Shown: positions 1 to 44,722 of the stretch, piece after piece | How the letters are laid out: the number at the start of each line of letters is the position of its first letter | How positions within the stretch are numbered: the stretch's first letter is position 1 | Assembly: GCF_001677475.2 (NCBI RefSeq) | Contig: NZ_CP015229.1 | Strand: one strand, 5' to 3' | From: Escherichia coli | GTDB lineage: Bacteria; Pseudomonadota; Gammaproteobacteria; Enterobacterales; Enterobacteriaceae | DNA: 64,000 nt | The notes under the pieces: model-generated | Databases searched by the model: none | What the model was told of the DNA's origin: nothing | The model's input: the letters and a program-made list of their open reading frames with translations, nothing else | Program-made: the position numbers and the translations under genes

Positions 1-127
1 ATATGGATGATATTGAGAGAGAAATAGAAAAGATAAAATGTTGGGAGAAGCCGGGTGATTAATATAAAACGGGAAGGCATGTAGCCTTCCCGTTGAGCCT
101 GTCAATCATTCTGTGTAAATGCCTTTC

Positions 128-583
128 TCAGAAGTGACCGTCAAGGCAGTCCCCGAACTCGATAATAAAGCGACTCATGGCTATCCGCCAGTCCTGAAGT
201 GGCATCGTCCATTTCTGTGAGGCTGACTGGATAGCCAGCCACACCACTTTTTTCACCGAGTCGTCTGTCGGGAACACTTTCCGTTTCTTTATCGCATGTC
301 TGATGACGCTATTCAGCGATTCGATTGCGTTAGTGGTGTAGATAACCTTGCGGATCGCCTCCGGGTACACGAAGAAGGTGGCAACATTCGGCCAGTTTGC
401 CCGCCAGCTGCGACTTATCTGCGGGTACCGTGCATCCCATTCCTTCCCGAACGCATCCAGCGCCTGCAACGTGCCTTCTTCCGTGGCTGCGCGGTAAACC
501 TGTTTCAGGTCACGGGTTACCGCTTTATAGTCTTTCCACGCCACGAACCGCAGGCTGTTGCGTACCATGTGTACTATGCACAA
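128..583 (-). pseudogene. IS256 (Mutator)-family transposase, C-terminal remnant; N-terminal two thirds absent
   Basis: 151-aa ORF carries the family C-terminal signature (...YTTNAIESLNSVIRH...); full-length members are ~400 aa; upstream coding sequence missing. Confidence 0.6.
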
Positions 584-742
584 CTGGATCTGCGTCTCAG
601 GGAAAGATCACGTAACGCTACTTTTTTGTACTAAATAATTGGCATTTTATGTTTAAAAATTGAGATATTCCTCATTACCTAAAGCTGTTTTTTTATTGCT
701 TATACATGATCAAGTACTCCTTACATAATTAAGGAGAACAAA

Positions 743-1534
743 ATGGAACTTAAAAAATTGATGGAACATATTTCTATTATTCCCGATTACAGACAAGCCT
801 GGAAAGTGGAGCATAAATTGTCAGATATTCTACTGTTGACTATTTGTGCCGTTATTTCTGGTGCAGAAGGTTGGGAAGGTATAGAGGATTTTGGGGAAAC
901 ACATCTCGATTTTTTGAAGCAATATGGTGATTTTGAAAATGGTATTCCTGTTCACGATACTATTGCCAGAGTTGTATCCTGTATCAGTCCTGCAAAATTT
1001 CATGAGTGCTTTATTAACTGGATGCAAGATTGCCATACTTCAGATGATAAAGACGTCATCGCAATTGATGGAAAAACACTTCGGCATTCTTATGACAAGC
1101 GTCGCCGCAAGGGAGCGATTCATGTCATTAGTGCGTTCTCAACAATGCACAGTCTGGTCATCGGACAGCTCAAGACGGATGAGAAATCTAATGAGATTAC
1201 AGCTATCCCTGAACTTCTTAACATGTTGGATATTAAAGGAAAAATTATCACAACTGATGCGATGGGTTGCCAGAAAGATATCGCAGAGAAGATACAAAAA
1301 CAGGGCGGTGATTATTTATTCGCTGTAAAAGGAAATCAGGGGCGGCTTAATAAAGCCTTTGAGGAAAAATTTCCACTGAAAGAATTAAATAATCCAGAGC
1401 ATGACAGTTACGCAATGAGTGAAAAGAGTCACGGCAGAGAAGAAATCCGTCTTCATATTGTTTGCGATGTCCCTGATGAACTTATTGATTTTACGTTTGA
1501 ATCGAAAGGGCAGCTATGGACAGAAACTACCTGA
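743..1534 (+). CDS. ybfD: H-repeat-associated (ISAs1-family) transposase-like protein, truncated; YbfD-like
   Basis: 263-aa ORF resembling the N-terminal part of Rhs H-repeat ORF-H proteins; lies immediately upstream of ybgA as in K-12. Confidence 0.6.
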
Positions 1535-1651
1535 CGTCAGTCCTTGCGGGGAGCGGGCTTTCGTAATCTTGCCCTGCTACAACAGGATTAACTTCACAAA
1601 CATCATTTACCAACGTCTACACTTACTCCTGTTAATATCTCAGGAGCAGTA

Positions 1652-2161
1652 ATGAATCAGCAACGATTTGATGACAGCACCCTAATCCGTATCTTCGCCC
1701 TTCATGAGTTACATCGACTGAAAGAACATGGCTTAACGCGCGGGGCGCTTCTCGATTATCACAGCCGCTATAAACTCGTCTTTCTGGCTCATTCCCAGCC
1801 GGAATACCGCAAACTTGGCCCGTTTGTGGCTGATATTCATCGGTGGCAAAGTCTGGATGACTATTACAACCAGTACCGCCAACGCGTAATTGTTTTGCTT
1901 TCTCACCCCGCCAACACGCGCGATCACACTAACGTTTTGATGCACGTTCAGGGATATTTTCGCCCACATATTGATTCCACAGAACGCCAGCAGCTGGCGG
2001 CGCTTATCGACAGTTATCGCGGTGGCGAGCAACCGCTTCTTGCGCCGCTGATGCGTATCAAACACTATATGGCGCTTTATCCTGACGCCTGGCTTTCAGG
2101 GCAGCGTTATTTCGAACTTTGGCCGCGTGTGATTAACTTGCGCCATTCAGGAGTTTTATGA
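1652..2161 (+). CDS. ybgA: DUF1722 protein YbgA
   Basis: 169-aa ORF; 4-bp overlap with phr start (ATGA), same arrangement as K-12 ybgA-phr. Confidence 0.9.
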   Translation: MNQQRFDDSTLIRIFALHELHRLKEHGLTRGALLDYHSRYKLVFLAHSQPEYRKLGPFVADIHRWQSLDDYYNQYRQRVIVLLSHPANTRDHTNVLMHVQGYFRPHIDSTERQQLAALIDSYRGGEQPLLAPLMRIKHYMALYPDAWLSGQRYFELWPRVINLRHSGVL

Positions 2162-3576
2162 CTACCCATCTGGTCTGGTTTCGCCAGGATTTACGTCAGC
2201 ACGATAATCTCGCGCTGGCTGCCGCCTGCCGCAATTCGTCTGCGCGCGTGCTGGCGTTGTATATCGCTACCCCACGCCAGTGGGCGGCGCATAATGTGTC
2301 GCCGCGTCAGGCTGAACTTATCAATACACAACTTAATGCGCTGCAAAACGCGCTGGCGGAAAAAGGTATTCCTTTATTGTTCCGTGAAGTGGATGACTTT
2401 GTCGCCAGCGTCGAAATAGTTAAACAGGTGTGCGCGGAAAACCGCGTTACTCATCTTTTTTATAACTATCAGTATGAGGTGAATGAGCGGGCGCGGGATG
2501 TGGAAGTTGAAAGAGCGCTGCGTAACGTGGTGTGTGAAGGATTTGATGACAGCGTGATCCTGCCGCCGGGGGCGGTGATGACTGGCAATCATGAGATGTA
2601 CAAAGTCTTTACGCCATTTAAAAACGCCTGGCTGAAACGGCTGCGGGAAGGGATGCCGGAGTGCGTCGCTGCGCCAAAAGTACGTAGTAGTGGATCGATA
2701 GATCCCGCGCCATCCATTACGCTGAATTACCCTCGTCAGTCTTTCGATACTGCGCATTTCCCGGTGGAAGAAAAAGCGGCGATTGCGCAATTACGCCAGT
2801 TTTGCCAGAACGGTGCCGGAGAGTACGAGCAACAGCGAGATTTCCCTGCGGTAGAAGGCACCAGCCGTTTGTCCGCCAGCCTGGCAACGGGCGGGTTATC
2901 GCCTCGCCAGTGTCTGCATCGCCTGTTGGCGGAACAGCCGCAGGCGCTGGACGGTGGGGCCGGTAGTATCTGGCTTAATGAGCTGATCTGGCGCGAGTTT
3001 TACCGTCATCTGATAACGTATTACCCCTCGCTGTGTAAACATCGTCCGTTTATTGTCTGGACCGACCGCGTGCAGTGGCAGAGCAATTCCACGCATTTAA
3101 AGGCCTGGCAGGAAGGCAAAACGGGATACCCGATTGTTGATGCTGCCATGCGTCAGCTTAACAGCACTGGCTGGATGCATAACCGGCTACGGATGATTAC
3201 AGCCAGTTTTTTGGTGAAAGATTTATTGATCGACTGGCGCGAAGGTGAGCGATATTTCATGTCGCAGCTGATTGATGGTGATTTGGCAGCCAATAACGGT
3301 GGCTGGCAGTGGGCCGCTTCAACCGGAACCGATGCAGCGCCGTATTTTCGTATTTTTAATCCGACAACCCAGGGCGAGAAATTTGACTGCGAAGGCGAGT
3401 TTATCCGCCGGTGGCTACCAGAGTTGCGCGATGTACCAGGGAAAGCGGTGCATGAGCCGTGGAATTGGGCAGATAAATCAGGTGTGACGCTGGATTATCC
3501 GCAACCGATAGTCGATCACAAAGAAGCGAGAGTACGAACGTTGGCAGCGTATGAGGCGGCGAGGAAGGGGAAATAA
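2158..3576 (+). CDS. phr: deoxyribodipyrimidine photolyase
   Basis: 472-aa ORF with photolyase/cryptochrome FAD-binding C-terminal region (WMHNRLRM..., GGWQW...). Confidence 0.95.
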   Translation: MTTHLVWFRQDLRQHDNLALAAACRNSSARVLALYIATPRQWAAHNVSPRQAELINTQLNALQNALAEKGIPLLFREVDDFVASVEIVKQVCAENRVTHLFYNYQYEVNERARDVEVERALRNVVCEGFDDSVILPPGAVMTGNHEMYKVFTPFKNAWLKRLREGMPECVAAPKVRSSGSIDPAPSITLNYPRQSFDTAHFPVEEKAAIAQLRQFCQNGAGEYEQQRDFPAVEGTSRLSASLATGGLSPRQCLHRLLAEQPQALDGGAGSIWLNELIWREFYRHLITYYPSLCKHRPFIVWTDRVQWQSNSTHLKAWQEGKTGYPIVDAAMRQLNSTGWMHNRLRMITASFLVKDLLIDWREGERYFMSQLIDGDLAANNGGWQWAASTGTDAAPYFRIFNPTTQGEKFDCEGEFIRRWLPELRDVPGKAVHEPWNWADKSGVTLDYPQPIVDHKEARVRTLAAYEAARKGK

Positions 3577-4147
3577 CAGACGCGTCAGGCAATCTTGCCC
3601 GGATGCCGGATACTGCGTGATGAACTGCACCCCAAATGTTGGACATAATCTGACATCTGAAGGTGCAGTTTATGAAACATTCATTTGAAGTAAAACTTGC
3701 CGCTGTAAATCATTACCTGGCTGGTCATGCAGGCATCATTTCTACGGCAAAACTCTTTCAACTTTCTCACACCAGCCTCTCACACTGGATTAATCTTTTT
3801 CTTCTTCACGGTCCTCGGGCACTGGATTGCAGACACAAGCGTAGCTATTCTCCTGAAGATAAACTTTGCGTGGTTCTTTATGCTCTCGGGCATTCTGAGT
3901 CTCTACCCCGGGTAGCTGCCCGGTTTAACATTCCCAGCCACAACACGGTTAAAAACTGGATAAAAGGCTACCGCAAATCTGGTAATGAGGCCTTTATCAG
4001 GCGCAGGAAGGAGAAAAGCATGACCCGTTCTGATGATACCCATGAAAACGAGGCAAACATGACGCCGGAAGAGATGAAGAATGAGCTGCGTTATCTTCGC
4101 GCAGAAAATGCATATCTGAAAGCCATGCAGGAGCATCTCCTGGAAAA

Positions 4148-5052
<905 letters not shown>

Positions 5053-5110
5053 GAACGCCTTCTCCGGCTTGGCAAATAGTGCAAATTCAATATATTGCAG
5101 GGACATCCAG

Positions 5111-5143
5111 GCCTGATAAGACGCATTAAGCGTCGCATCAGGC
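5111..5143. repeat. REP/PU-like palindromic element
   Basis: gcctgataagacgcattaagcgtcgcatcaggc, imperfect palindrome of REP type in the IS-dtpD spacer. Confidence 0.55.
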
Positions 5144-5158
5144 ATCGGTGCTGGCCTG

Positions 5159-6823
<1,665 letters not shown>

Positions 6824-28951: not shown

Positions 28952-30347
28952 ATGCCTTAAACGTTAACCACGGTCGAAATCTGACCGCTGGCTGAATTAA
29001 TCCGGCTTCTTGTTGAGCTTCGATAACCGGACCAATATCTTTATAAGCCGCTGGCGCTTCTTCAAGACGTCGTTCTTCGCGCAATGTGACGCATTGCCAC
29101 GGCAGCGTTGACTCTTCAGTCACGCGTGAGCGCATGGCCTGCCGACGCTGGCTGCGTCCTGCTCCGTGACTGCATGACCACAGCCACTCCGGGTTGCCGC
29201 AACCTACCGCAAGCCACGAATAATCGCCCATTGAACCAGGGATTAATGCCAGATCACCCACTCGTGCCGGTGTTGCGCCTTTGCGATGAATATTCATTTC
29301 ATGCTCGCGAAGGATGATGTTATGTGGCACATCCACCACCAGATGCGAATTGTCCTGATGAAAGAGATCGGCAAAACATACGCGCACCATTTCGGCAATT
29401 GTGACGCGATTTAACCATGCGTAACGCGCCGCCATCCCCATCGCTTGTAGATATTCCTCCGCCAGTCCACCGGTTAGACCATATAACTCGCTTTGTGGAT
29501 GTTTATGCCCGGCAGGCCAGGCGGCACGGGCGCGATCCATCCAGCGTCTTCCGACGTAAAAGCCAACATCTCGCGATCCACTGTGGATCATCACCACAAT
29601 ATCGCCTGTTTTCAGCCCTTGTTGCCAGGCTACATGGCGATCAACCACGCTATCAACGACCTGAAGTTCAATAAAATGATTACCTGAACCCGGCGTACCC
29701 AGACAAGGATCGCGGAGTAATGCGCGGTCCGTTGCCAGCAGGGCGGGTGGGGCATAACGCGAATGACTGTTATGCTCGTTAAGCCCAATGCAGCGGTCAA
29801 TCTCTTGTACCATTCGGGGGATATTCGTGCGTGTCCAGAGACCTGCTGATGGCAAGGTCGACACGCAATCTGCCGGTCCGTCATCAAAAAGCGCGGTGAA
29901 CGCCTGTGCGGATAACGGAACATCGCGCTCATTTTGCAGTAGCACTTGCGTTAACCGCTGAGCGATGACGTCTTTATGCGCTTCGGCTTGCTCAAGTGTT
30001 AATCCGGTCGTCAGCAGCCGCATGCCACAAGAAATATCGGTGCCGATGGCGGCAGGAATGACTAAATCCGGCGTTGAGGCCACCACCGCGCCAACGGGGA
30101 CGCCATTGCCGGGATGAAAATCTGGCGTCGCGCACGTCTGGCGCACATAACCTGGGTGGTCTGGTAGCTTCACTTCTGCAAAATCAAGCAGTTGTGTTAC
30201 TGCTTTTTCTTCCAGCGGCAGTTCGTCCGGCAGCAGTACGCGGGCACTGGCACCTGATGGACGAGATAATGAAACAATATTGTTGGCGCGGGAAAGTTGG
30301 ATCCCTTTGCGCAGAAAGGCTTTATCAAGCCTTGAAAGATGATGCAT
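28950..30347 (-). CDS. RtcB-family RNA ligase paralog (3'-phosphate/5'-OH ligase family)
   Basis: 465-aa ORF with RtcB motifs aligned to E. coli RtcB from memory: PAAIGTDISCGM, GSGNHFIE, IHSGSRDVG, IPGSMG, SCSHGAGR, AYKDI. Confidence 0.85.
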   Translation of the reverse strand: MHHLSRLDKAFLRKGIQLSRANNIVSLSRPSGASARVLLPDELPLEEKAVTQLLDFAEVKLPDHPGYVRQTCATPDFHPGNGVPVGAVVASTPDLVIPAAIGTDISCGMRLLTTGLTLEQAEAHKDVIAQRLTQVLLQNERDVPLSAQAFTALFDDGPADCVSTLPSAGLWTRTNIPRMVQEIDRCIGLNEHNSHSRYAPPALLATDRALLRDPCLGTPGSGNHFIELQVVDSVVDRHVAWQQGLKTGDIVVMIHSGSRDVGFYVGRRWMDRARAAWPAGHKHPQSELYGLTGGLAEEYLQAMGMAARYAWLNRVTIAEMVRVCFADLFHQDNSHLVVDVPHNIILREHEMNIHRKGATPARVGDLALIPGSMGDYSWLAVGCGNPEWLWSCSHGAGRSQRRQAMRSRVTEESTLPWQCVTLREERRLEEAPAAYKDIGPVIEAQQEAGLIQPAVRFRPWLTFKA

Positions 30348-30938
30348 AACGCTGTCCTGAAATATAGACGTTAAACAACCCCCTGTATTGCGAGGGTAAT
30401 TTTGTCTTTCCGGTCAGCAGCCAGCAAAAGGGAAAGAAAACGCGCGTAGTGTATGTGGCGATAGCAAGTTTTACAAGTGGTAAATCTGGCTTATTGTTAA
30501 AGAGAAATTATCTTTAGCGAAGCCTTTTAAGGCCATGACTCATTCAATTTAACCGGACACAGAGATTATATAACATAGGGTATCTAAATTTATCATTGTA
30601 TACTTGTCATACTTCAAGTTGCATGTACTGCATCGATGTTCGCTCAGCCTGGCCACTTACTTATGTAAGCTTCTGGGAATTCATTATTTGTTGCCTTCCT
30701 GCAACTCGAGTTATTTAGAGTATATTTACACATATGAATAATATACTTACAATAATGTTTTTAAAGTATTGCATGCGGATAACTGAGGTGAAATTCCTGT
30801 TTTAGGATTATTGTCACTTTATTTTCCTGGTTGGACATATAGCTGACTGGTTTGTTTATTTGAATTATGATATTCATTAGTGCTACTGTTTTTTTATAAA
30901 ATAATTTTTTGAATTGTTATTTTTTCACGGAAGGCATT

Positions 30939-31844
30939 ATGCGAGGGAAAATACCTAAAACGGAACTGCTGGTGACTTTTGAGGTCGTCGCACGTCATGA
31001 AAGTTATACCAGAGCGGCAGAGGAGTTAGCGTTAACCCAAAGTGCAGTATTCAGACAAGTGAGTGCGCTGGAGGAATTTTTACATACTCCGTTATTTTCA
31101 CACTCTAAAAAACGTATTTTTCTTAATGATGCAGGGAAGTATTACCTGGGGATAGTAAAAGAAACATTAAATAAGCTGGAACGCGATACCAATACCATTA
31201 TGACCTGGCAACCTACAGTTAAGGTTATTGAACTTGCCGTGAATCCTACGTTTAGTACCCACTGGTTAATCCCAAATTTACATGAATTCACAAAGTTACA
31301 TCCCGATATTATTGTTAATATTCACTCTTTAGCTAATAACGGCGATTTTCTTAATCGGGAGTACGATGCTGTCATTATGCGCGAAAATTTTTGCGCGCCC
31401 TGGGCGGAAGTAGAATATCTCTTTGAAGAAGAGATTTTGCCGGTATGCAGCGGCAGTTTGCTTGCAATGTCCGATCAAAAACTGTCAGTGGCAGAACTGC
31501 TTACAGAGTTACCACTTCTGCATCAAAGTACCCGTATTACTGGCTGGGAAGAGTGGTTTGCTTTATCTGGCGTTAGCAGTCCGCTGGTCAATAACGGACC
31601 ACGTTTCGATTTGCTTTCAATGCTGATTGCCGCCGTGCGCTCTAATCTCGGCGTGGCGCTGTTACCACGGTTCGCTATTCAACATGATTTGGATAGTGGC
31701 GATATGGTGATTCCCTGTGATGTGCCTATTCGTACCGGTAATCGTTTTATTATGACGTGGCAGGAAGAGAAGTCTGACTCGCCGCACTTGCAGCAATTTC
31801 GTGAATGGTTGCTGGCGAAATCGGTCGTACCGCAGGAGATGTAA
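30939..31844 (+). CDS. LysR-family transcriptional regulator
   Basis: N-terminal HTH (LVTFEVVARHESYTRAAEELALTQSAVFRQVSALE), ~300 aa, GGAAGG Shine-Dalgarno before ATG at 30939; divergent from the RtcB paralog. Confidence 0.85.
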   Translation: MRGKIPKTELLVTFEVVARHESYTRAAEELALTQSAVFRQVSALEEFLHTPLFSHSKKRIFLNDAGKYYLGIVKETLNKLERDTNTIMTWQPTVKVIELAVNPTFSTHWLIPNLHEFTKLHPDIIVNIHSLANNGDFLNREYDAVIMRENFCAPWAEVEYLFEEEILPVCSGSLLAMSDQKLSVAELLTELPLLHQSTRITGWEEWFALSGVSSPLVNNGPRFDLLSMLIAAVRSNLGVALLPRFAIQHDLDSGDMVIPCDVPIRTGNRFIMTWQEEKSDSPHLQQFREWLLAKSVVPQEM

Positions 31845-31877
31845 AACCTGCGCCTGGCGGGATGCCAGGCGCAGTTA

Positions 31878-32480
31878 TTACCAGTCGATACCCGGCTGGG
31901 CCTGAATGCCGCTATCAAAAGCATGTTTGACGGGGCGGATTTCGCTGACCGTATCCGCCATTTTTAATATCTGACTGTGGCAACCGCGTCCGGTGACAAT
32001 GACACTTTGTTGTGCCGGGCGGTTTTGCAGAGAAGCGATCACTTCTTCGGTATCCAGATAATGGTAAGCCAGCATATAGGTGAGCTCATCAAGCACCACT
32101 AAGTCGTAACGCTTGTCAGCCAGCATCCGTTTGCTTTCCGACCAGACCTCTTTCGCCGCGTCGATATCCGCTTGTCGGTTCTGTGTTTCCCAGGTAAAAC
32201 CGGTTCCCATAATATGAAACTCAACCCCCAGCGGCTGGAGAAGGTTGTATTCGCCGTTGTCCCATTGCCCCTTGATGTACTGCGCAACCCCCACCGTTTT
32301 GCCATGACCCACCGCGCGCGTCACAGTACCAAACGCGGCAGTGGATTTCCCTTTGCCGTTGCCGGTGAAAACAATCAAGATCCCTTTTTTCTCTATCGCC
32401 GCCGCGACGCGCGTATCGACCTGTTCCTTCAATTTCTGCTGGCGCTGCACATGCCGTTCTGTTGAAATTCGCGCTTCCAT
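31878..32480 (-). CDS. ATP:cob(I)alamin adenosyltransferase, BtuR/CobA-type paralog
   Basis: 200-aa ORF closely resembling E. coli BtuR (VFTGNGKGKSTAAFG P-loop, VVLDELTYM, RPVKHAFD); last gene of the island operon. Confidence 0.85.
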   Translation of the reverse strand: MEARISTERHVQRQQKLKEQVDTRVAAAIEKKGILIVFTGNGKGKSTAAFGTVTRAVGHGKTVGVAQYIKGQWDNGEYNLLQPLGVEFHIMGTGFTWETQNRQADIDAAKEVWSESKRMLADKRYDLVVLDELTYMLAYHYLDTEEVIASLQNRPAQQSVIVTGRGCHSQILKMADTVSEIRPVKHAFDSGIQAQPGIDW

Positions 32481-32489
32481 TCATTTTCC

Positions 32490-34142
32490 TTAATGTCCCG
32501 CAGGGCAACTGGCGCAGCGGTGTTGCTGCTCAAACTGACTAAAGAAATTATTGCCTTTATCATCTACCAGGATGAATGCGGGCAGATTTTCCACTTCCAT
32601 CATCCACACCGCTTCCATACCCAGCTCCGGGTATTCAAGGCAACGCAGACTTTTGACATATTCTTGCGCCAGTAACGCAGCTGCACCGCCAATACTTCCC
32701 AGATTGAAGCCGCCATGTTTGTGACAGGCATCGGTGACCTGCTGGCTGCGGTTACCTTTCGATAACATCACCAGACTGCCGCCAGCCGCCTGGAAGGTAT
32801 CGACATAACCGTCCATTCGACCGCCCGTGGTTGGACCCAGTGAACCGCAGGCCATGTTCTCCGGTGTTTTCGCCGGGCCAGCGTAATAGACAATATGATG
32901 CTTCAGGTAATCCGGCATCGGTTCGGCGCTATCCAGCCGCGCTTTTATTTTGGCGTGGGCGATATCGCGTGCCACTACGATGGGACCACTTAACGACACG
33001 CGGGTGCCTACCGGTAATCTGGCGAGATCCTGCATCACGTCACGCAACGGACGGTTTAGATCCAGATGTACATGTTGCGCGTGATTTTCTTCCCGCAGTG
33101 AGGCTGGAATATATTGCCCCGGATTGTGTTCGAGTTTTTCCAGCCAGATACCGTGCTTGTTAATTTTTGCTTTGATATTGCGATCGGCAGAACAGGAGAG
33201 CGCCATAGCTATCGGACAAGAGCCACCGTGACGCGGCAGACGAATGACGCGAATATCATGAGCGAAATATTTACCCCCAAATTGCGCACCAATACCAAAT
33301 TGCTGACTGGCCTCGAGCAACACTTTTTCCAGCTCAATATCACGGAATGCTTGTCCCTGCTCGTTTCCGCTGGTGGGCAAATTGTCGTAATATTTCGTTG
33401 AGGCCAGCTTGGCAACTTTTAAGGTTTGATCGGCTGAAAGCCCTCCGACGACAAAGGCGATGTGGTAAGGCGGGCAGGCAGCGGTGCCCAGCGATTTCAT
33501 TTTTTCGATTAAAAATGCGGTCAGTTTTTCTGGTTGCAATAAGGATTTGGTTTCCTGATAAAGTGCGGCTTTATTGGCGGAGCCGCCCCCTTTATTAACA
33601 CAGAGAAAATGGTACTCATTACCAGCGACAGCGTTGATATCAATCTGCGCCGGGAGATTGGTTTGCGTATTGACTTCGGTATACATATCCAGCGGCGCAT
33701 TTTGTGAAAAGCGCAGATTATTTTCCTGGAAAGTGGTGTAAATGCCTTTGCTTAAGGCTTCAGCGTCGTTACCTCCGGTCCATATCTGTTGCCCTTTACT
33801 GGCAACAATAGTTGCGGTGCCGGTATCCTGACAGTTGGGTAATACCCCTTTTGCTGAGACTTCAGCATTACGTAATAACTGCAACGCAACGTATTTATCA
33901 TTACTACTGGCCTGCGGATCGTTAAGAATGCTGGCGACCTGTTGCAAATGAGCGGAACGTAAGAAAAAAGAAGCTTCATAAAATGCCTGCCGGGCAAGCA
34001 GCGTTAATGCTTCAGGTGCGATTTTTATCACTTCTTCGCCGTCTAATTCCGTTACTGTAATATGCTGATCGCTAATTAATGTATATTCTGTACCGTCTTT
34101 ATTTTGTAGAAATGGTTCTTGCCAGATAAATGGTTTGGACAT
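32490..34142 (-). CDS. fumD: class I fumarate hydratase homolog, probable mesaconase/fumarase (FumD-like)
   Basis: 550-aa ORF highly similar to FumA/FumB along its length ([39 protein letters not shown]); clustered with glutamate mutase and methylaspartase. Confidence 0.85.
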
Positions 34143-34249
34143 ATTTCACTTTTCACCTTAAACGTTAGTGTTACTTAATTGCCGTCTAACTTCATGATCC
34201 GGCTTATAAAAATGCATAGTCATTGGCTTCTGATTGCTTAAGATCCCCC

Positions 34250-35530
34250 TCAGGGCAGAGCAACGTTCGATTCATTGGGTTTTAATGCTTTACCCCGACA
34301 GCCCTCGCCGAAATGTTCGCCTTCCCACCGACTCACCATCGCAGCGCCCATTGCGTTGCTCATGACGTTTGTCGCGGAACGCCCCATATCAAGGAACGGA
34401 TCAACGCCCATCAGCAAGATCAGCCCCGCTTCCGGAATATTGAACTGGTTGAGCGTGGCGGCGATAACCACCATTGAAGCGCGTGGTACGCCAGCCATTC
34501 CTTTCGAGGTCAACATCAGGATCAACAGCATGGTGATTTGCTCACCGATGGATAAATGGATATTGCAGGCCTGGGCGATGAAAACTGTGGCGAAGGAGCA
34601 GTAGGCCATTGATCCAACGAGATTAAATGAGTAGCCAATGGGTAAGACAAAGCTGGCAATTTTGGGGGAAACGCCAAATTGCTCCAGTTTTTCAAGCGTT
34701 CCTGGAAAAGCCGCTTCAGAACTGGATGTGGTAAATGCCAGCAGGGCGGGTTCCGAAAGGGCGCGGGTCAGGCGTCTGATGCAGGGGCCGACATAAACGA
34801 TGGCCAGACCGATAAGCAGCACCCAAAGTAACAACATGGTGAAATAAAATTCACCCATAAAGATCCCGGCGCTCACCATAACTGCCAGTCCTCGTTCAGC
34901 AATCAATGCTGAAATAGCGGCGAATACGGTCAGGGGAGCGAAGAGCATGACGTAGCCAGTGAGCTTTAACATGGCATGTGCCAGCGAATCTAAGGCGTGA
35001 ACGATGGCGCTGCCTTTCTCGCCAATCGCCGTCAGGCTACAGCCGAGGAAAATTGAGAACACCACGATTTGCAAAATTTCATTGTGCGCCATGGCATCGA
35101 CAATGCTGGTGGGGAAAGCATGCGAAATAAATACTTTTAGCGTGAAGGGTTCTGACGCGACCACTCCAGTGGTTTCGGCACCGTGTGCAACAAAATTAAT
35201 TCCTGTACCTGGCATGAAGAAATTTACTGTTATTAAGCCTAAGGCAATTGACAGCAATGAGGCGCAAATAAATAAAAAGAGTGTTTTAGAAAAAATACGA
35301 CCAAGGGCTTTGGCATCGCCCATTTTAGCAATACCTACCACCAGGGTAGAGACCACTAACGGAGCGATAATCATTTTTATCAGTCGTAAGAAAATCGTCG
35401 TGAATATCGATATTTCTTGCGCATAGAGTTTTGCGGTTTCCGGTGAAGCAGTGTTATTGAGCACTACGCCGATAACCATTCCAAGTACCAGCGCCAAAAG
35501 AATCATCGTGGTTAAACTTATTTTCTTCAT
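34250..35530 (-). CDS. dicarboxylate/amino acid:cation symporter (DAACS family; GltP/DctA-like)
   Basis: Polytopic ORF with DAACS-type motifs; Met at 35530 preceded by GGAGG; substrate not inferable. Confidence 0.8.
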   Translation of the reverse strand: MKKISLTTMILLALVLGMVIGVVLNNTASPETAKLYAQEISIFTTIFLRLIKMIIAPLVVSTLVVGIAKMGDAKALGRIFSKTLFLFICASLLSIALGLITVNFFMPGTGINFVAHGAETTGVVASEPFTLKVFISHAFPTSIVDAMAHNEILQIVVFSIFLGCSLTAIGEKGSAIVHALDSLAHAMLKLTGYVMLFAPLTVFAAISALIAERGLAVMVSAGIFMGEFYFTMLLLWVLLIGLAIVYVGPCIRRLTRALSEPALLAFTTSSSEAAFPGTLEKLEQFGVSPKIASFVLPIGYSFNLVGSMAYCSFATVFIAQACNIHLSIGEQITMLLILMLTSKGMAGVPRASMVVIAATLNQFNIPEAGLILLMGVDPFLDMGRSATNVMSNAMGAAMVSRWEGEHFGEGCRGKALKPNESNVALP

Positions 35531-35575
35531 TTTTTCCTCCATCAGGTGCACGGCGATAAATCAGAATCAGGAGAA

Positions 35576-35607
35576 GTAGATGCCTGAATAGAGATTCAGG
35601 CATCTAC
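35576..35607 (-). other. intercistronic perfect hairpin (14-bp stem, 4-nt loop)
   Basis: gtagatgcctgaat-agag-attcaggcatctac between the small coupled gene and the transporter gene. Confidence 0.5.
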
Positions 35608-35690
35608 CTGCTATTACAACCTTACAAATAGCTGAAGTGTTGAACTGCAATAAGTGACGGGATGTCAGTTGGCTAAAAGTGTTCGGATTT

Positions 35691-36008
35691 TTACAAATCG
35701 AAACTCATATTTAATAAAGGTGCATGTTGCTGTGCACCATAGACATCATTGTCACCTACATTCCCGGAGATAATATCTCGTGGCATGACGATTTTTACTG
35801 CGTTAGAAGGATCAAACCAGACAATACGATGAATAAAGTCAGGTTCAACATGATATAAGCGCGCAATCAGTTCTGGGGTTAATTGCCCTGATGATTTAAC
35901 TCGCTCATAGTTTTCTTTGGTTTTAAATAAAATATCTAAAACCAGTTCGTAAGGTCCGGCATTTTTCGAACGAATGACTTGCGCCAGTGAGACAATTGAC
36001 TGTTTCAT
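35691..36008 (-). CDS. uncharacterized small protein, partner of the upstream 456-aa protein (possibly DUF4387-like; unverified)
   Basis: 105-aa ORF overlapping the upstream gene by 4 bp; no motif I can assign. Confidence 0.55.
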   Translation of the reverse strand: MKQSIVSLAQVIRSKNAGPYELVLDILFKTKENYERVKSSGQLTPELIARLYHVEPDFIHRIVWFDPSNAVKIVMPRDIISGNVGDNDVYGAQQHAPLLNMSFDL

Positions 36009-37375
36009 GCCTGAACTCCTTCTGGCGTCACCTGTTCAATATGGAAATCAAAACGCAGAGCGTCGTTGGCTTCAATCAGGTGATATATGGAAAATTCGTA
36101 TACTGGCCCGCCCTGGATATCAGAAGGGGAGAACGGGAACGCCAGGTTGCCTGCGGTAGCGATGCGGTTTTCATAGCCGTAGTGCAGCATAGTAGAGCGC
36201 ACCAGCGAGCAAACGCTGTTGGCAATTTCCTGGGTCGATGCAACTACATCTAGCACAATCCCCAGCTCATGCCCGGCAGTTTGCATCGGTTCATGGTCGC
36301 CCATCACCCCGTTTTTGCCGTACAGGTGGAAATTGATGCGAATGCTGTCATCGTCGAGCGACAGGTTACGCGAAACGCTGGTTTTGACTTCATCGATGAT
36401 TTTATCGATCCCGGCGATCATGATCGGGTCGCGCGTTCCTGCGATGGTCAGACAGCGGAAGCCCACTCGTCGCGCACCTTCCAGTTTCAGGGCATACGGC
36501 GTTCCTTCATGCTTAGAACCGCTGACGTACACTTCGCCGTCATTGACCGCTTTAAATGTGCAGCCTTTCAGGTTCAACACGCCGCCAGGTCCAGGCAGGA
36601 AGTAGGGATCGGATTTCTCATACAGTGTGTGTGCAGCCGCTGACGTTTCGGTAAATTTACGCTTCGGATTAAATGTCTTCAGCGTAAAGCCGTTGTCATC
36701 AATGATGCCCATCGCACAGTCAGAGCCTGAGCCGGGCGTTGCGGCGATTGCCGCGCATTCAAGGATTTTCCCACAATGCAGCGCCAGACCTTCATCAAAG
36801 CCTTGCATGATCGGTAGCGCAGCAAAGCAGGCCGGGTCGTAAGCGCGCCCGCCCAGCACCACTTGCGCGCCTTCTTTCAGCGCCTGCTGGAAGGGTTCGA
36901 TGCCCATTTGCGCGACGATATACGTACTTTCGTCAATCGCGTCGTGGGTTAACGGCGGGACAAAATCCAGCGCCGTGATTTTGCCGTTATCCAGCGCCTG
37001 GTGGACGATGGCTTTGTCAACGTCTGCCGGGATCAACGCCATCGAGAACGAGAGGTGCTCTTCCCGGGCAATCTCATGAATTATTTCTCGGCACCACTCC
37101 AGGTGTGGTGCGGCACCAGAACCGCCAGCCGTTCCGATCACCACCGGTATATTATTTTGCACGCCTGCGGTGATCATATAGCGCAGATCGCGCTTGACCC
37201 CTGCGCGATCGGTAAACGGTTTGCCTGCCCCGAGGTAGTGGGGGCCTGGATCGGAAGAGCCTGCATCAACGGCGATCAGATCGGGCGATTCTGCCATCGC
37301 TTTGCGGAAGCTCTCTTCCGGGAATCCATACCCGAGGATTGCCGTTGGCGATAAGACTTTAAAAGAACGAGCCAT
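36005..37375 (-). CDS. uncharacterized protein, large member of a coupled pair (possibly DUF1446/AtuA-like or an AcnX-type hydratase; unverified)
   Basis: 456-aa ORF starting 3 bp after methylaspartase; several conserved-looking Cys/Gly-rich stretches (GTAGGSGAAPH, HCGKILECAAIAATPGSGSDC); family assignment needs an HMM search. Confidence 0.55.
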   Translation of the reverse strand: MARSFKVLSPTAILGYGFPEESFRKAMAESPDLIAVDAGSSDPGPHYLGAGKPFTDRAGVKRDLRYMITAGVQNNIPVVIGTAGGSGAAPHLEWCREIIHEIAREEHLSFSMALIPADVDKAIVHQALDNGKITALDFVPPLTHDAIDESTYIVAQMGIEPFQQALKEGAQVVLGGRAYDPACFAALPIMQGFDEGLALHCGKILECAAIAATPGSGSDCAMGIIDDNGFTLKTFNPKRKFTETSAAAHTLYEKSDPYFLPGPGGVLNLKGCTFKAVNDGEVYVSGSKHEGTPYALKLEGARRVGFRCLTIAGTRDPIMIAGIDKIIDEVKTSVSRNLSLDDDSIRINFHLYGKNGVMGDHEPMQTAGHELGIVLDVVASTQEIANSVCSLVRSTMLHYGYENRIATAGNLAFPFSPSDIQGGPVYEFSIYHLIEANDALRFDFHIEQVTPEGVQA

Positions 37376-37378
37376 TTG

Positions 37379-38620
37379 TTAATCCTTAGCCTGCAACAGC
37401 GCGATAGTACGATTCATTTCGTTGAAGACAATATCGAGGCCTTCGTCAAAGCCCATCCCAGGTTTTACCAGCATACGCATAGGGCGAGCGGCAAGGGCGA
37501 CGTGGACACAGGTGCGTGCACTGACATCAGTTTCATTGCAGGTGCCGCCCTGGTACGCTTCCATGTTGTGGCTGTTGCAATAAAGAACTGCATCGACGAT
37601 GTTGTGAATACTGCCCAGATCCGGGGTTTTGATTTGCACCATGTGGCAACTGGCGGCATCAGTGAAATCAACAATATCCTGGTAGGTGTTACACCATTCA
37701 TCGGCCACAATTTTCACGCCGGAACCGAGGCGCATCAGCTCTTTGGTAATCGCGGTCAGCAGGCGAATTTGATCGGGCTTGTTACCGGCATCGACCGGCC
37801 CTTCAATGTAGAGCGGCAGGCCTTGCGCTTCTTTTTCCAGGCTGGCGATGTATTGCGCACAGCGAAGCGGATCCATATCGAAGATCAGACCGATAGTGCC
37901 GTATACATCGATGTGCAGGGTTGGGTGGTAGCGTGCGCTGGTGCGCTTGCTCAGAATGCGATCCGACAGCCAGCGGACATATTCGCGCAGTTTTTCACCT
38001 TTAAAGCCCAGCTTCTCTTCGACGTTATTAATCAGCGCATGGGGCAGCACGTCGATGCCTTTAAGGATCATCTTATCGACGGCGATATATCGATCGTCGC
38101 CGCTCTGACCAAATAATGGAATGGATTCCGCCACGCGTGGCAACTGCCATTCATCACAGACCACTTCAGTTTTCAGACGGCCGGTTGCCAGCGCGGCAGC
38201 ATCAAGCAGCGCCTGTGATAATCCGTAGCGCACGGCGGTATGCAGCAAGTTGCCGTCAATACGCAATTTGTCGAAGAAACGGGCATTCGGCAGGAAAGCA
38301 TCCACATCGCGGCCTACCAGTAATGGCTTAATATGGTCGTTGAGGAACGGAATAAAGTGCTCTGCGAGGAACAGTGGATCGCGACCACCTGCCCCGGAAT
38401 ACTGTACGGCAGCACAGTCACCTACAGCGACCGCGCCGTTTTCCAGAATCAACTGTACCGATACGCACTCCCCAGCCTGACGTACGGCGTTAAACCCTTG
38501 TGTTACTGGCTCCCCGGTATAAAAAAAGCCGTCGTGACCCGCTCCGTTTTTTATCGCCTGCTGGTCATCGAAATAGAATGAGGAATAGCCAGCGGTGAAC
38601 AGGGCCTGTTTTATTTTCAT
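37379..38620 (-). CDS. mal: 3-methylaspartate ammonia-lyase (beta-methylaspartase)
   Basis: 413-aa ORF, enolase-superfamily methylaspartase signature (FYFDDQ.AIK.GAGHDGF N-terminus). Confidence 0.9.
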   Translation of the reverse strand: MKIKQALFTAGYSSFYFDDQQAIKNGAGHDGFFYTGEPVTQGFNAVRQAGECVSVQLILENGAVAVGDCAAVQYSGAGGRDPLFLAEHFIPFLNDHIKPLLVGRDVDAFLPNARFFDKLRIDGNLLHTAVRYGLSQALLDAAALATGRLKTEVVCDEWQLPRVAESIPLFGQSGDDRYIAVDKMILKGIDVLPHALINNVEEKLGFKGEKLREYVRWLSDRILSKRTSARYHPTLHIDVYGTIGLIFDMDPLRCAQYIASLEKEAQGLPLYIEGPVDAGNKPDQIRLLTAITKELMRLGSGVKIVADEWCNTYQDIVDFTDAASCHMVQIKTPDLGSIHNIVDAVLYCNSHNMEAYQGGTCNETDVSARTCVHVALAARPMRMLVKPGMGFDEGLDIVFNEMNRTIALLQAKD

Positions 38621-40065
38621 TATGGTCTTCCTATTAATTTACTGTGGGATACAGCATTGATGTCATCTACAACCATCTGGAATGTCGGTTGGCGTCCTTC
38701 AAAGCGTGCGCGTTCCGCAACGTAATCGTGGTGGAGGTCGAGAATATCTTTTGGCAATGGAACGGCTCCGGCTTCCAGTACGCGTATCGCGCCGGTGTTG
38801 TCACGGACCGGAAGAATTTTGCCCGCGTTGCAGGCGGCTGGCGCAAATGGCACATCCAGTACGCCCGCTTCAAATGCCAGCACCGTTCCGCGCGCAATAT
38901 CATCATTACCCAGTTCGAACACTTTATTCAGTACTGCGCGAACCTCGCTCTTAATCAGTTCAATTTCCAGTTCAACCGCAGGGCACGGCGGAAATTTCTG
39001 CTCATTGACCATGTTGAGCATCTGGCGGGAGGCTTTTAGCCCCTGAATGTTGGCAGCGGCAGTCGGGATGCCCCAGGCTTCGTGCGGACTTTTGGTGATG
39101 ACTTTGGTGGCACCAGACATCCCCGCGACGGCTGCGCCCCAGGAGATAATAGCGAACGCTTTCGATTCGTCTTCCGGAAAGCCGCCCATCCACTGGTGAA
39201 ACACGGTACTTAATTCATAGTCGGTATAGCCATAGCTCTGAAAGTAGTCATGTGCAAGTTCACGCAGAGACTGGATCGCCGCAACATCCTGCGTCAGGCT
39301 GCCGACCTGTCCATAACCAACGGTGATAGATTTCACACCCTGTTCCAGTGCCAGCAATCCTTCGATTATCGCGATAGAGTGCGAGATAAACGGCGGGATC
39401 AGCGTACCCGTTAGTGGGCCAAACGGTTCGCGGTTGATGCGGATCCCGTGTTCTTCATACATCCCCATTAAACGGTCGCAGTACTGCCAGTCGCGGATCG
39501 ATTTTTCCAGCGTTACGCGTTTGGCATACGGAATGTTGTAGGAAATGCCGCCGCCTTCATAACTGGTAAAGCCGCTGGACATCGAGATTTCAGCCAGCAG
39601 ACGTGCATCTGGCGTGCCGTGGCGGATCTGTAGCGGTTTTTGCAGGGTTTCGGTGAGGCGACGGCAAGCAGCGACACCATGGTTAACTACCGGTAAACCG
39701 TTCAGTTTAGAGGTTCCGGCTTCGATGGATTTTTTAATCCCTACAGCCGCTTCTTCGTACCGATTCAGACGGGTATATGCATCGATGGTGCTTGGCAGCA
39801 GATCGCACTCTTCTTGTAGTGTTTTCAGTAGTTCGATGTGTTCGTCCATCAGCGCCACACCTGCGCGTGGTTGGCTAAGGGTTTTTCCTTCCTTGTCTGC
39901 TTTCAGCAGCGCAAGAGAGAAGCGTTTATGCTCAGGAATGGTTTGTTGGTATTTAACGCCATCTTCAAAGTTTTCAACATCCTTGCCGGTTTCCCAGGTT
40001 TTCAGTACCTGTTGCCGCTCGGTCATGAATTCGTCATGGGTTAATTTCTTATTTCGAAGTTCCAT
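38620..40065 (-). CDS. glmE: glutamate mutase epsilon (E) subunit
   Basis: 481-aa ORF matching methylaspartate mutase E chain; 1-nt overlaps with mal and near glmL. Confidence 0.88.
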   Translation of the reverse strand: MELRNKKLTHDEFMTERQQVLKTWETGKDVENFEDGVKYQQTIPEHKRFSLALLKADKEGKTLSQPRAGVALMDEHIELLKTLQEECDLLPSTIDAYTRLNRYEEAAVGIKKSIEAGTSKLNGLPVVNHGVAACRRLTETLQKPLQIRHGTPDARLLAEISMSSGFTSYEGGGISYNIPYAKRVTLEKSIRDWQYCDRLMGMYEEHGIRINREPFGPLTGTLIPPFISHSIAIIEGLLALEQGVKSITVGYGQVGSLTQDVAAIQSLRELAHDYFQSYGYTDYELSTVFHQWMGGFPEDESKAFAIISWGAAVAGMSGATKVITKSPHEAWGIPTAAANIQGLKASRQMLNMVNEQKFPPCPAVELEIELIKSEVRAVLNKVFELGNDDIARGTVLAFEAGVLDVPFAPAACNAGKILPVRDNTGAIRVLEAGAVPLPKDILDLHHDYVAERARFEGRQPTFQMVVDDINAVSHSKLIGRP

Positions 40066-40083
40066 TGATTGCAGCCTTAATTG

Positions 40084-41472
40084 TTATAGGGTTAAGCATT
40101 GAATACTGGTGCGCGCGGCGGCCAGCGGATCGACTCTGGCGACGTTTGCCAGCAGTGGTAATAGCCCCCGGGAATCGCGGTAATATTCAAATTCGGTCGG
40201 TAAGAGAATGCGTTTACCGTCGTCGTTTAACTCGCGGTATTTCAACCAGTGATGCATATCGAACTGACTGGCACGCGAGAGCCATCCGCCGGAACCCACG
40301 ACTTTACGCACGGTTGTCAGGTCACGTCCCATCTGTAAATCGACATTGCCGACGCAGGTGCAGACCTCTTTTTTGGTGCCCGCATGTCTTTCGGTGGCAT
40401 AACCCACACACAGTCCGGCCAGGACGGTATCGAAATATTTCTCTTCTGCATTTGCGGGTAAGTAGTCGGGATGAGCGACTAAATGACGGAGATAATGATA
40501 AAAAGCGTCCAGCTGTGCGGGTTGCTGAGCAAAATTCACATTGACTAACTCTTTCGCACTTTCACCAACCACCACTGCCGAGACGCGCATTCCCAGATCG
40601 CCTTCCACCGTCCGTTTTACGAAGGGTTCCGGTACGCCGTGTAAAACGGTGTCGGGCGAGAGCGTGTTGGCACAGGCGGAATAGACATCGGTGGTTGCGC
40701 CGCCCATGTCGATCAGCATGAACTCTTTCCAGCTGTGATCGACGTTACTGATTGCCTTAACCAGTTCAAAGACCGTCCATGGTGTCGGCCTTGGTTCTTC
40801 GCCTGTTTTATCAACAATGACATCCAGCCCTTTCCCTTTAACGATGCGTTTAAGGAATATGTCGCAAATAGCCTGGCGTGCGGCTAAAGGGTTCGGATGG
40901 TCAAGATCGGGCAGAACGTTGTCGACGATGGTCAGGTCTTTATGCCCGAGGAGCTCCTGCACCTCGTCCTGAATATCCCGGTTTCCGGCATAAATAATGG
41001 CGCAGTCGAGTTGGGATTCTGCCAGCACACGGGCGTTATTCAGTCCGTAACTTTCTTCTCCGCCGTCGGTGCCGCCGGTGAACAAGAGAATATCGGGCTG
41101 CGTTTCTTCCAGTGCCTGGATATCACGGCGGTTCAGCTTGTAGGAGTAATATTGCGCAATTTTAGCCCCCGCAGAGTGAGCGGTTACTTTCGCGGTTTCC
41201 AGGGTGATAGAAGGCACCAATCCCATTGCGGCAACCGCCAGCCCACCTTTGGCAGAGGAGGAATACTTTAATGCAACCTCACCACTGTTTAACAGGGGGA
41301 GGGCATCATCTACGTTTAACACCTGGTCCAGGCTGGAGAAAAACCCCTTCGCCAGATGATGGGTGGTGGTTGGGGTCAGAACGTGGTTAACCAACGTTAA
41401 CGCGTCCCCCTCCCGGGTGAAGAGGGCTGCTTTGGTCCACGTCGAACCAATATCGACAGAGACGATTTGCAT
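40084..41472 (-). CDS. glmL: glutamate mutase accessory protein (GlmL/MutL)
   Basis: 462-aa ORF between S and E subunit genes as in clostridial glmS-glmL-glmE; overlaps glmS stop. Confidence 0.8.
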   Translation of the reverse strand: MQIVSVDIGSTWTKAALFTREGDALTLVNHVLTPTTTHHLAKGFFSSLDQVLNVDDALPLLNSGEVALKYSSSAKGGLAVAAMGLVPSITLETAKVTAHSAGAKIAQYYSYKLNRRDIQALEETQPDILLFTGGTDGGEESYGLNNARVLAESQLDCAIIYAGNRDIQDEVQELLGHKDLTIVDNVLPDLDHPNPLAARQAICDIFLKRIVKGKGLDVIVDKTGEEPRPTPWTVFELVKAISNVDHSWKEFMLIDMGGATTDVYSACANTLSPDTVLHGVPEPFVKRTVEGDLGMRVSAVVVGESAKELVNVNFAQQPAQLDAFYHYLRHLVAHPDYLPANAEEKYFDTVLAGLCVGYATERHAGTKKEVCTCVGNVDLQMGRDLTTVRKVVGSGGWLSRASQFDMHHWLKYRELNDDGKRILLPTEFEYYRDSRGLLPLLANVARVDPLAAARTSIQCLTL

Positions 41473-41921
41473 CAGATTGCCTCTTCAAGAATGCGAGTAT
41501 CAACGTCATGACGTTGGTTGATATCGTGGGCCATCAGCTGACAAACATCTTCTAAGTCATGACTTGGGGAAAAGACGCGATCAAATCCCATCTCTTTGAA
41601 CTTGGTTTCCACGTCAGCGAAGTCATGTTTTCCGACCACCAGGTTACCGCCCACATAGAGCAGGATGTTACCCAGCCCACGCTCGATGCAGCGTTCGCGC
41701 ATGCCCAGACAATCGATATCGCCATGCCCATAGATAGAAGAGACGACAATCGCGTCAGCGCCAGTTTCAATAGCAGCATCAATATATTCGTCCTGGCTGA
41801 CCATTACGCCCAGATTAATGACTCTGAAGTCGTGGTTGCTAAAAACGCGGTCCAGAACTTTATTGCCTACTGCATGGCAGTCCGCGCCAATAACGCCAAT
41901 CACAAGTGTTGCTTTCTTCAT
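41472..41921 (-). CDS. glmS: glutamate mutase sigma (S) subunit, B12-binding
   Basis: Cobalamin-binding motif ([10 protein letters not shown]); start at 41921 ([19 protein letters not shown]) preferred over track start 41984. Confidence 0.88.
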
Positions 41922-41984
41922 GGGTAATCCTTTGTAAGACAGAGAGTAAAATAAGTTACACACGTCGTATTTATGGCCGCTCAT

Positions 41985-42468
41985 AACGGCACAGGTTTAA
42001 TATCACAGGAGTGTCTTTATCTGACCGTAATGTTGCAATTGATCTATTTTCAAAATGTCTTTCGGGAAATGATTGTTTAAAGTGTGTTTTCAAATTCTCA
42101 TTTTAATTCAGTGTGTTATGTCAACTAATGTCATGAATGTTAAATTTTTAAAATTAACTTGATTTGATGTATTGAGATAATTGTGATCAACTTCTAATTT
42201 GCATTTTTGTGACGTGGCTTTAGCCATGAGTAAATGCATTTCATAAAAGTTAAGTCGAATTTCACTGCAATTCATCTCTGCTTAATGTAAAAATAATGTT
42301 GAAAATAACAAATAATTAATGATTCATGCGAATTATGACCTTTGTTAGCTCTTTTGATTTTTCGTAAAAAAGAAAAGCACATGAAGGTGCTACCAGTACG
42401 AGAAACGTTAATCAAAAGTTTTATTACGTCTGGCAATAACGCAGGCCATTTTTCGCGACAGGAGGGAT
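41985..42468 (-). promoter_or_regulatory. AT-rich leader/promoter region of the glmS-led operon
   Basis: ~480-bp very AT-rich non-coding spacer upstream of glmS; individual sites not resolved. Confidence 0.5.
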
Positions 42469-42891
42469 TTAATCAGTATAATCCTCATACAATAGGTCAG
42501 GATTTACAGAACCGTTAACGGGGTTTTGGTGTTGAAATTTAGAAATGGTGGAGTCAATCAATGAAGACAGTATCGAAAAAATGACTGTGTCAGAACTAAT
42601 TTCAATTAATCCTTCTCGTTGTTGATCAAAAAAGATATTTATCTTGATTTCATTTGTACTACGGCAATCAATATGTAGTAATTTTTGATCGCTGAGATTT
42701 TCTGTTTCATAAATGTTTTTGGCGATAGTCGGATGTATTGATGCCAGACATCTGCTCAGATAAGCCATATCCTTTAAGGAACTCCCCGCTGAGTAGAGGA
42801 TGTCAGAGAATTTTTGTGTGTCAACTGTTGTCTCTGAAGCGTATGTTGCATTGACAGGAAGAGTATTGAAAGAGATCTGAGATGGTATCAT
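42469..42891 (-). CDS. hypothetical protein (no recognisable family)
   Basis: 140-aa ORF in low-GC DNA, co-oriented with and 81 bp downstream of the 314-aa ORF. Confidence 0.5.
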   Translation of the reverse strand: MIPSQISFNTLPVNATYASETTVDTQKFSDILYSAGSSLKDMAYLSRCLASIHPTIAKNIYETENLSDQKLLHIDCRSTNEIKINIFFDQQREGLIEISSDTVIFSILSSLIDSTISKFQHQNPVNGSVNPDLLYEDYTD

Positions 42892-42972
42892 TATTTAAAT
42901 CTTTCCGTGAGTAATAAAAATTAATCCCCAGGCATTGTTTAGCAATATTTGCCATAGGGGATATATAGAAAA

Positions 42973-43917: not shown

Positions 43918-44722
43918 AGCAGCAACCTCATTGTAATCAAGCGAGGCGCTGAGCGTACTCGGCTATAGAAAAACTAACTTGCAAAAATCGCTCATTTTTC
44001 ATTTATCAGGCGAAAGTGGCCTCTGTTCACTCAGAAACAATCACTCCCGCTAAGTCATACCTGTTTCATCGATACATTTAAGTGATTATTACTAATGAAA
44101 CAATAACATAACGGGCTTACGGTCGGTGCTCATAAAGGCAACAATCAATTAACTTTGATAAAAATATGTTATGTAAAATAGCAACAAATTGGCTACTCTA
44201 ATCAATTGGTATTATAAAAAGAGGATAAGGCGGTTCTGTTAAATAAAACACTGGTTTTTTATCTATACCTTTTCATTGTAATAATTGTGTTGCATAAATA
44301 TTTCACAATAAATTAACAATAAAATCACCAATGATCTATGGTTTATACATAATTAACATATTTGGTTGGTTTTGATATAAATCAATTTTTAATTCTTGAA
44401 AAAAATCTGCAAAACACGATAAATTGTCGTAGATCAAATTGGTGAGATCGTGACAATTTCGCTATAAATTGATCACTGTCGAAAAATGCAAATTTGCTCA
44501 ATAAAAACCTGTTTATTGTAAGGATTTTGCGGCGTAATATAATTACGGGATCAATTTGGTTTATTCATTAACATATTTGTAACTTTTTTATCATTGTCTT
44601 TTCCTCTTTTGATGAAATGGCAACGATAGAGGCGAGCAAATAATTTTGTATTGGGGCATGCGTGTGACCCTTTCTAACGGGGTTCACTCTCGGAGTCTTC
44701 ATGCGATGAGCAAGGAGTCATG
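43918..44722 (+). promoter_or_regulatory. cydAB upstream regulatory region
   Basis: ~800-bp AT-rich non-coding region before cydA; in K-12 this carries multiple promoters under ArcA/Fnr control (established knowledge; sites not mapped here). Confidence 0.6.

Follow-up and report, generated by a model that had tools for sequence, protein, structure and literature searches.

Sequence analysis of a 64-kb stretch of DNA deposited as Escherichia coli (64,000 nucleotides of contig NZ_CP015229.1; referred to below as the window) indicated that the interval upstream of ybgA is very probably the decayed distal end of an rhsC-type Rhs toxin locus, situated between ybfA and ybgA and holding two non-functional IS remnants. 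One is the right-hand part of an IS256-family element, and the other is an H-repeat with a large internal deletion. Judged by the catalytic motifs that they lack, both remnants are enzymatically dead. A preliminary description of the window had called them decayed mobile elements, and this is borne out by the loss of catalytic regions in both and by the early stops and in-frame stops found in their orthologs.

Locus context

The window opens in a probable immunity gene, of which the last 20 codons and the stop are present (1–62, plus strand); the complete ORF is 108 aa long and ends in ...DDIEREIEKIKCWEKPGD. Between this stop and the IS end lies a GC-rich hairpin (GGGAAGGC..GCCTTCCC; 68–94) of 11 pairs, seven of them G-C, followed by TTATATTAAT. 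The hairpin is conserved in the E. coli orthologs and was scored as a minus-strand intrinsic terminator. On the far side of the two remnants, ybgA (1652–2161, plus strand) was identified by a match to PF08349 (DUF1722) and by synteny with K-12 and other E. coli, and phr (2158–3576, plus strand) by the same synteny. These two are conserved chromosomal genes that bound the Rhs locus and are not part of the remnants. No Rfam family was found in window 1–1700 at E values up to 0.1, and no further copy of either element was found in the 64-kb window.

Exact look-up of the 263-aa ORF of the H-repeat retrieved three draft assemblies that match the window at 100% identity over positions 1–3620 or beyond (3620–3731 bases) and that reach 2086 bp upstream of its start. 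The order in this upstream sequence is an Rhs core end (DPxGL) with a toxin tip, a 94-aa ORF, symE on the opposite strand, a Tox-ART-HYD1 tip, and the 108-aa ORF. The orphan Tox-ART-HYD1 Rhs tip (97 aa) lies just upstream of the window, and the 108-aa ORF then ends at position 62. The same 108-aa gene (WP_001039055.1) occupies the same position in E. coli strains 14EC020 and 64.1. A DPxGL core end, a variable tip, and a small immunity gene, which together define an Rhs tail, are thus all present in the 100%-identical upstream contig. The interval reads as the distal end of an rhsC-type locus, and b0699–b0706 is a known Rhs site (PMC3032704).

The preliminary description had stated that K-12 carries an Rhs/H-repeat cluster just upstream of ybgA, which is correct (rhsC, ybfB, ybfO, ybfC, ybfQ, ybfL, and ybfD). 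It had also proposed an upstream extension in search of Rhs core sequences, and this extension recovered the DPxGL core end, tips, immunity genes, and symE in the three identical assemblies. The description would have had to be withdrawn if either transposase ORF had turned out to be full length in a longer context. Neither did: the IS256-family sequence is cut at 597/598, and the H-repeat ORF is internally deleted.

An assembly artefact, in the form of a chimeric join across repeated IS sequence, might be suspected from the facts that both elements occur repeatedly across Escherichia genomes and that the matching draft contigs break at repeats. However, the three independent assemblies are 100% identical over all junctions, and complete E. 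coli genomes have the same junctions at 96% identity, which leaves this explanation of the juxtaposition a negligible chance.

Downstream of the locus, a complete IS1397 (IS3 family, 1432 bp) occupies window 3621–5052 between phr and dtpD, with 99.8% identity to E. coli copies. It is absent from the phr–dtpD site in K-12 and in Escherichia sp. E1V33. IS1397 prefers REP/BIME targets, and the REP-like flanks observed here (sub-threshold Rfam hits at 5074–5194) fit this preference.

The IS256-family remnant

A C-terminal IS256-family fragment had been described on the minus strand, and profile searches confirmed it at the same coordinates, far beyond chance. The transposase ORF at 128–583 (minus strand; frame open to 595) matched Pfam Transposase_mut (PF00872) at profile positions 253–377 of 379 (E value, 1.4e-31), and its score of 110.2 bits against a cut-off of 21 assigns it to the family. 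It also matched the NCBIfam IS256 model NF033543 (E value, 1.4e-38); the score of 132.7 bits is under the full-length cut-off of 150 because only positions 214–336 of 338 remain. The fragment corresponds to residues 248–402 of the intact 402-aa transposase of E. coli SL124 (WP_241069040.1), with 95% identity.

At the DNA level, window 95–597 (minus strand) is 97.6–98% identical to other copies of one particular IS256-family element of approximately 1315 bp with terminal repeats of 31 nt, and it corresponds to positions 807–1314 of the copy in strain LHM10-1 (97.6% DNA identity). The 503 bp that survive include the right terminal inverted repeat, placed at 95–125 by repeat comparison; the left 62% of the element has been lost together with the left terminal repeat, and the H-repeat stands in place of this end from 598 on. 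The 5′ part of the remnant is cut exactly at the left inverted repeat of the H-repeat (597/598). The other half of the element was not found beyond the H-repeat, where the sequence from 1577 on is the conserved ybgA upstream region. A hallmark of the IS256 family is a target-site duplication of 8–9 bp, and just one end of the element survives at this locus.

The last 155 of 402 transposase residues are encoded, and the glutamate region (TTNAIESLN) alone is kept from the DDE triad. Both catalytic aspartate motifs (YLDCIV and CVDGLKG), which were placed by translating a plasmid-borne copy (pCV839-15-p2), lie 5′ of the break and are absent. Because it lacks both catalytic aspartates and the left end, the remnant is predicted to be capable neither of making a transposase nor of being moved. 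In the E. coli orthologs (14EC020), the IS256 fragment also contains two in-frame stops.

The label given to the parent element by PGAP is the generic "IS256 family" only. The nearest named IS is IS1414 (approximately 83% DNA identity), which belongs to the same family, followed by ISEc39 (approximately 78%); the parent is thus a distinct IS256-family element. An alternate frame of IS1414 holds astA, the gene of the EAST1 enterotoxin, and EAST1 was searched for in the remnant because of this relationship. The EAST1 query sequence was validated at 95% identity against the 38-aa astA of an IS1414 fragment. In the parent element, the astA-equivalent frame is 52% identical to EAST1 and contains an in-frame stop. 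The window retains the last 25 codons alone of this frame (523–597, minus strand), a degenerate astA-like tail with 12 of 25 residues identical (48%) and an in-frame stop, and a hidden EAST1 gene was rejected.

A 398-aa "transposase" ORF near traX/finO on plasmid pCV839-15-p2 (retrieved locus L005, 1781–2974) was considered as the full-length parent and was also rejected. It is a chimera that joins IS3 orfA, in frame, to 811 bp left over from the same IS256-like element; this chimeric ORF is found on many IncF plasmids and is widespread on plasmids of Escherichia, Salmonella, and Klebsiella. True copies of the parent element are those of SL124 (intact) and LHM10-1 (frameshifted). The near-full-length copy of E. 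coli LHM10-1 (retrieved locus L006, 2498–3855) belongs to another Rhs locus, beside yafV, at whose tail it lies between the last symE codons and the last 38 nt of an H-repeat. The IS256-like element therefore recurs at Rhs tails beside H-repeat sequence.

The deleted H-repeat

The H-repeat (ISAs1 family, ISEc1-like; 598–1576, plus strand) is 979 bp long, compared with approximately 1292 bp at full length. Its ends were set from an alignment of eight copies in different flanking contexts, which begin with CAGGGAAAGATCACGTAACGC... and end with ...GGCTTTCGTAATCTTGCCCTG. The terminal inverted repeats of the ISAs1 family are present at both ends (598–621 and 1553–1576). The longest exact run in this pair is 5 nt, and matches were therefore counted directly: CAGGGAAAGATCACGTAA agrees with its partner at 15 of 18 positions, compared with 0 of 200,000 random pairs. 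In a BlastN comparison with full-length copies, window 598–1509 and window 1510–1576 aligned on either side of a 313-bp gap. The junction of this internal deletion (1509/1510, plus strand) lies between the imperfect short repeats ATGGAAAGG and ATGCGAAAAG.

The ORF at 743–1534 (plus strand, 263 aa) is a disrupted ISAs1-family transposase gene. It matched PF13808 in full (E value, 8.6e-34) and PF01609 at positions 3–139 of 200, and its match to the NCBIfam ISAs1 model NF033564 (positions 1–221 of 314; 294.9 bits against a cut-off of 70) places it in the family. Residues 1–256 are homologous, with 96% identity, to the same residues of an intact 378-aa ISEc1-family transposase, and the last seven residues result from the frameshift. 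The 313-bp deletion removes transposase residues approximately 257–360, HWHVENKLHW included, and shifts the frame. The third catalytic (glutamate) region is deleted, and the ORF does not encode an intact ISAs1-family transposase. The preliminary description was right in placing an H-repeat ORF on the plus strand, as the PF13808 and NF033564 matches attest, but its term "truncated" does not hold: both ends of the element are kept, and what disrupts the ORF is an internal deletion rather than a missing element end.

By its position and similarity, the element is a ybfD allele, orthologous to K-12 ybfD (b0706, "H repeat-associated putative transposase," the third H-repeat of the RhsC element), which lies in the same place directly upstream of ybgA. 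The two have the same right-end junction and the same 313-bp deletion at approximately 94% DNA identity, whereas the ORF stops at 253 aa in K-12 and at 263 aa in the window. In K-12, two more H-repeats (ybfQ and ybfL) precede ybfD and the left end is rearranged; in the window, the left end abuts the IS256 remnant, which K-12 lacks at this locus. ISEc1, the intact H-repeat of the ISAs1 family, has the same terminal repeats as the window copy, which differs from it in the missing 313 bp and the frameshift.

No target-site duplication was found around the H-repeat; no repeat is common to its left flank (...tgcgtct) and its right flank (ctacaac...), and none would be expected after recombination between copies. 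The presence of both inverted repeats with their 15 of 18 matches, together with the existence of intact ISEc1-family transposase genes in E. coli genomes (WP_041498273.1), could indicate that the deleted element is non-autonomous but mobile, being moved in trans by an intact ISEc1 transposase encoded elsewhere in the genome. However, K-12, other E. coli, and the window lineage all have the H-repeat at one and the same chromosomal junction, as does Escherichia sp. E1V33 in remnant form, so this copy has not moved since before the lineages split. It also lacks a flanking target duplication and a second copy in the 64-kb window, and transposition of H-repeats has not been observed (PMC3032704). 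Mobility in trans is considered highly unlikely.

A promoter-like site (701–729) and the ribosome-binding sequence AAGGAGA (730–736) precede the ORF at 743–1534. The start of ybgA is 75 bp past the right end of the H-repeat; simple scans predicted no terminator after the ybfD ORF and no promoter-like site between the H-repeat and ybgA (window 1577–1651). Putative read-through from the H-repeat into ybgA–phr is possible.

The retained promoter-like site and ribosome-binding sequence are among the points in favor of the 263-aa YbfD-like ORF being kept as a working protein that could inhibit H-repeat transposition or serve as a domesticated regulator, with the N-terminal DNA-binding part retained. 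The pairwise dN/dS of the ORF is 0.14–0.16 (0.15 against K-12 ybfD and 0.14 against intact ISEc1), and the value against K-12, taken alone, would point to constraint. In 4 of 10 copies (window, K-12, FT130, and AF200), the reading frame stays open as far as the deletion point, and the deletion allele, detected as the ybfD-type deletion junction with the ybgA upstream region, stands next to ybgA in 3736 of 5426 complete E. coli genomes. However, six of the 10 sampled copies at the ybfD position have stops after 17–202 codons. The lineage-private substitutions are relaxed, with non-synonymous to synonymous counts of 5:4 in the window, 13:9 in K-12, and 6:3 in copy C of strain 64.1, where one nonsense change is included. 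Low pairwise dN/dS is expected if divergence mostly arose in active copies or by gene conversion, and the left half of the H-repeat has demonstrably been exchanged between copies. Selection on ybfD, as read from the dN/dS of 0.15, was rejected on the basis of the private-substitution counts and the early stops in the orthologs. Decay with gene conversion is favored, and the low dN/dS is attributed to ancestors that were active and to gene conversion. Maintenance of a working protein is quite improbable. It is similarly hard to credit that the ybfD-type allele has been retained because its product (the N-terminal DNA-binding domain and two-thirds of the catalytic domain) represses H-repeat transposition or recombination, or because it drives transcription into ybgA–phr.

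Recombination between H-repeats and occurrence in other genomes

Three H-repeat copies are present at this locus in strain 64.1, with orphan rhs tips, immunity genes, and symE between them. Copy A is full length and abuts the IS256 remnant, copy C is deleted and abuts ybgA, and the remaining one is copy B. Strain 14EC020 has one H-repeat, whose left 400 columns match copy A of 64.1 at 19 of 19 informative sites and whose right side equals copy C in three clean SNPs, the deletion allele, and the ybgA junction. Approximately 5.6 kb of orphan modules found in 64.1 is missing from 14EC020. This pattern is the signature of a crossover between copies A and C, and the A/C chimera of 14EC020, compared with 64.1, gives substance to the earlier proposal that the remnants mark a "recombination-prone boundary." The crossover is demonstrated in E. 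coli; for the window, where the H-repeat shows a mixed pattern of A-like and C-like SNPs, we infer it from the same two junctions. The change may have been either a deletion from a 64.1-like state or an insertion into a window-like state.

The history that we propose would begin with the insertion of an IS256-family element just past the terminator hairpin of an orphan toxin/immunity module, of which the right 503 bp survive. In the H-repeat that abuts this remnant, the 313-bp deletion between short imperfect repeats caused the frameshift and the loss of the third catalytic region. As a passive effect, H-repeats scattered among orphan Rhs modules would supply approximately 1 kb of homology, and RecA-type crossovers across this homology may delete or reshuffle the orphan modules. 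The window arrangement combines the left junction of an upstream "A-type" copy with the deletion that marks the terminal "C-type" copy and with the ybgA junction of that copy, which is the expected product of a crossover between two copies. The missing left part of the IS256 element may have been lost in an event of that kind.

Coverage of window 1–1700 reached at least 80% in 85 of the 5426 complete E. coli genomes. All parts of the composite (immunity gene, IS256 remnant, deleted H-repeat, and ybgA) occur together at 95.9% identity in 14EC020 and a few others, and in 14EC020 and 64.1 the remnants of the same composite are annotated as pseudogenes. The PGAP-annotated composite of 14EC020 and about 85 other complete genomes has an identical architecture and identical junctions (95.9% over window 1–1698). 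In E. coli, the IS256 fragment of the composite is interrupted by in-frame stops and ybfD is frameshifted, whereas both frames are still open in the window, which comes from a diverged Escherichia lineage. O157:H7 has an undeleted full-length H-repeat with an internal stop (Z1504) at the ybfD position upstream of ybgA; E. coli as a whole is therefore not fixed for the 313-bp deletion. In Escherichia sp. E1V33, the last 34 nt of the H-repeat alone remain next to ybgA. The junction between the H-repeat and ybgA, being common to the window, K-12, and E1V33, appears to be old. Among species-representative genomes, the junction between the IS256 remnant and the H-repeat was not found, and a 24-mer from the ybgA upstream region was found only in Escherichia sp. 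E1V33 (92% identical).

The window is approximately 94% identical to K-12 over the first 22 kb and 98% identical over suc/cyd/tol. The step lies between 1–22489 (ybgA–sdhB, approximately 94.4%) and 22522–54183 (sucA–sucD and cyd–tol, 98.3–98.6%), and it reflects either a mosaic or strong conservation of the sucA–sucD and cyd–tol operons. In ybgA–phr, no E. coli genome exceeds 96.4% identity to the window. This value and the approximately 94% identity to K-12 point to a diverged Escherichia lineage as the host, and the window is not typical E. coli. Draft assemblies of related genomes are GCA_018682865.1, GCA_002516285.1, and GCA_018683295.1. Elsewhere in the window, approximately 28960–44350 has no K-12 counterpart, and mngR-mngA-mngB is replaced. 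This region encodes RtcB, a LysR regulator, a corrinoid adenosyltransferase, a fumarase-like enzyme, a dicarboxylate symporter, methylaspartate ammonia-lyase, a glutamate mutase E chain, and a MutL-like protein, which together form a methylaspartate/glutamate-mutase cluster.

The features described here are ordinary and already known, as ybfD and the H-repeats in RhsC and as PGAP-annotated pseudogenes in E. coli. Annotations should list the two ORFs as pseudogenes (IS256-family fragment and ybfD) rather than as transposases. The remnants serve as a map marker, placing the start of the window inside the tail of an rhsC-type polymorphic-toxin locus, and they provide one clean example of H-repeats as crossover sites that would delete orphan toxin/immunity modules.
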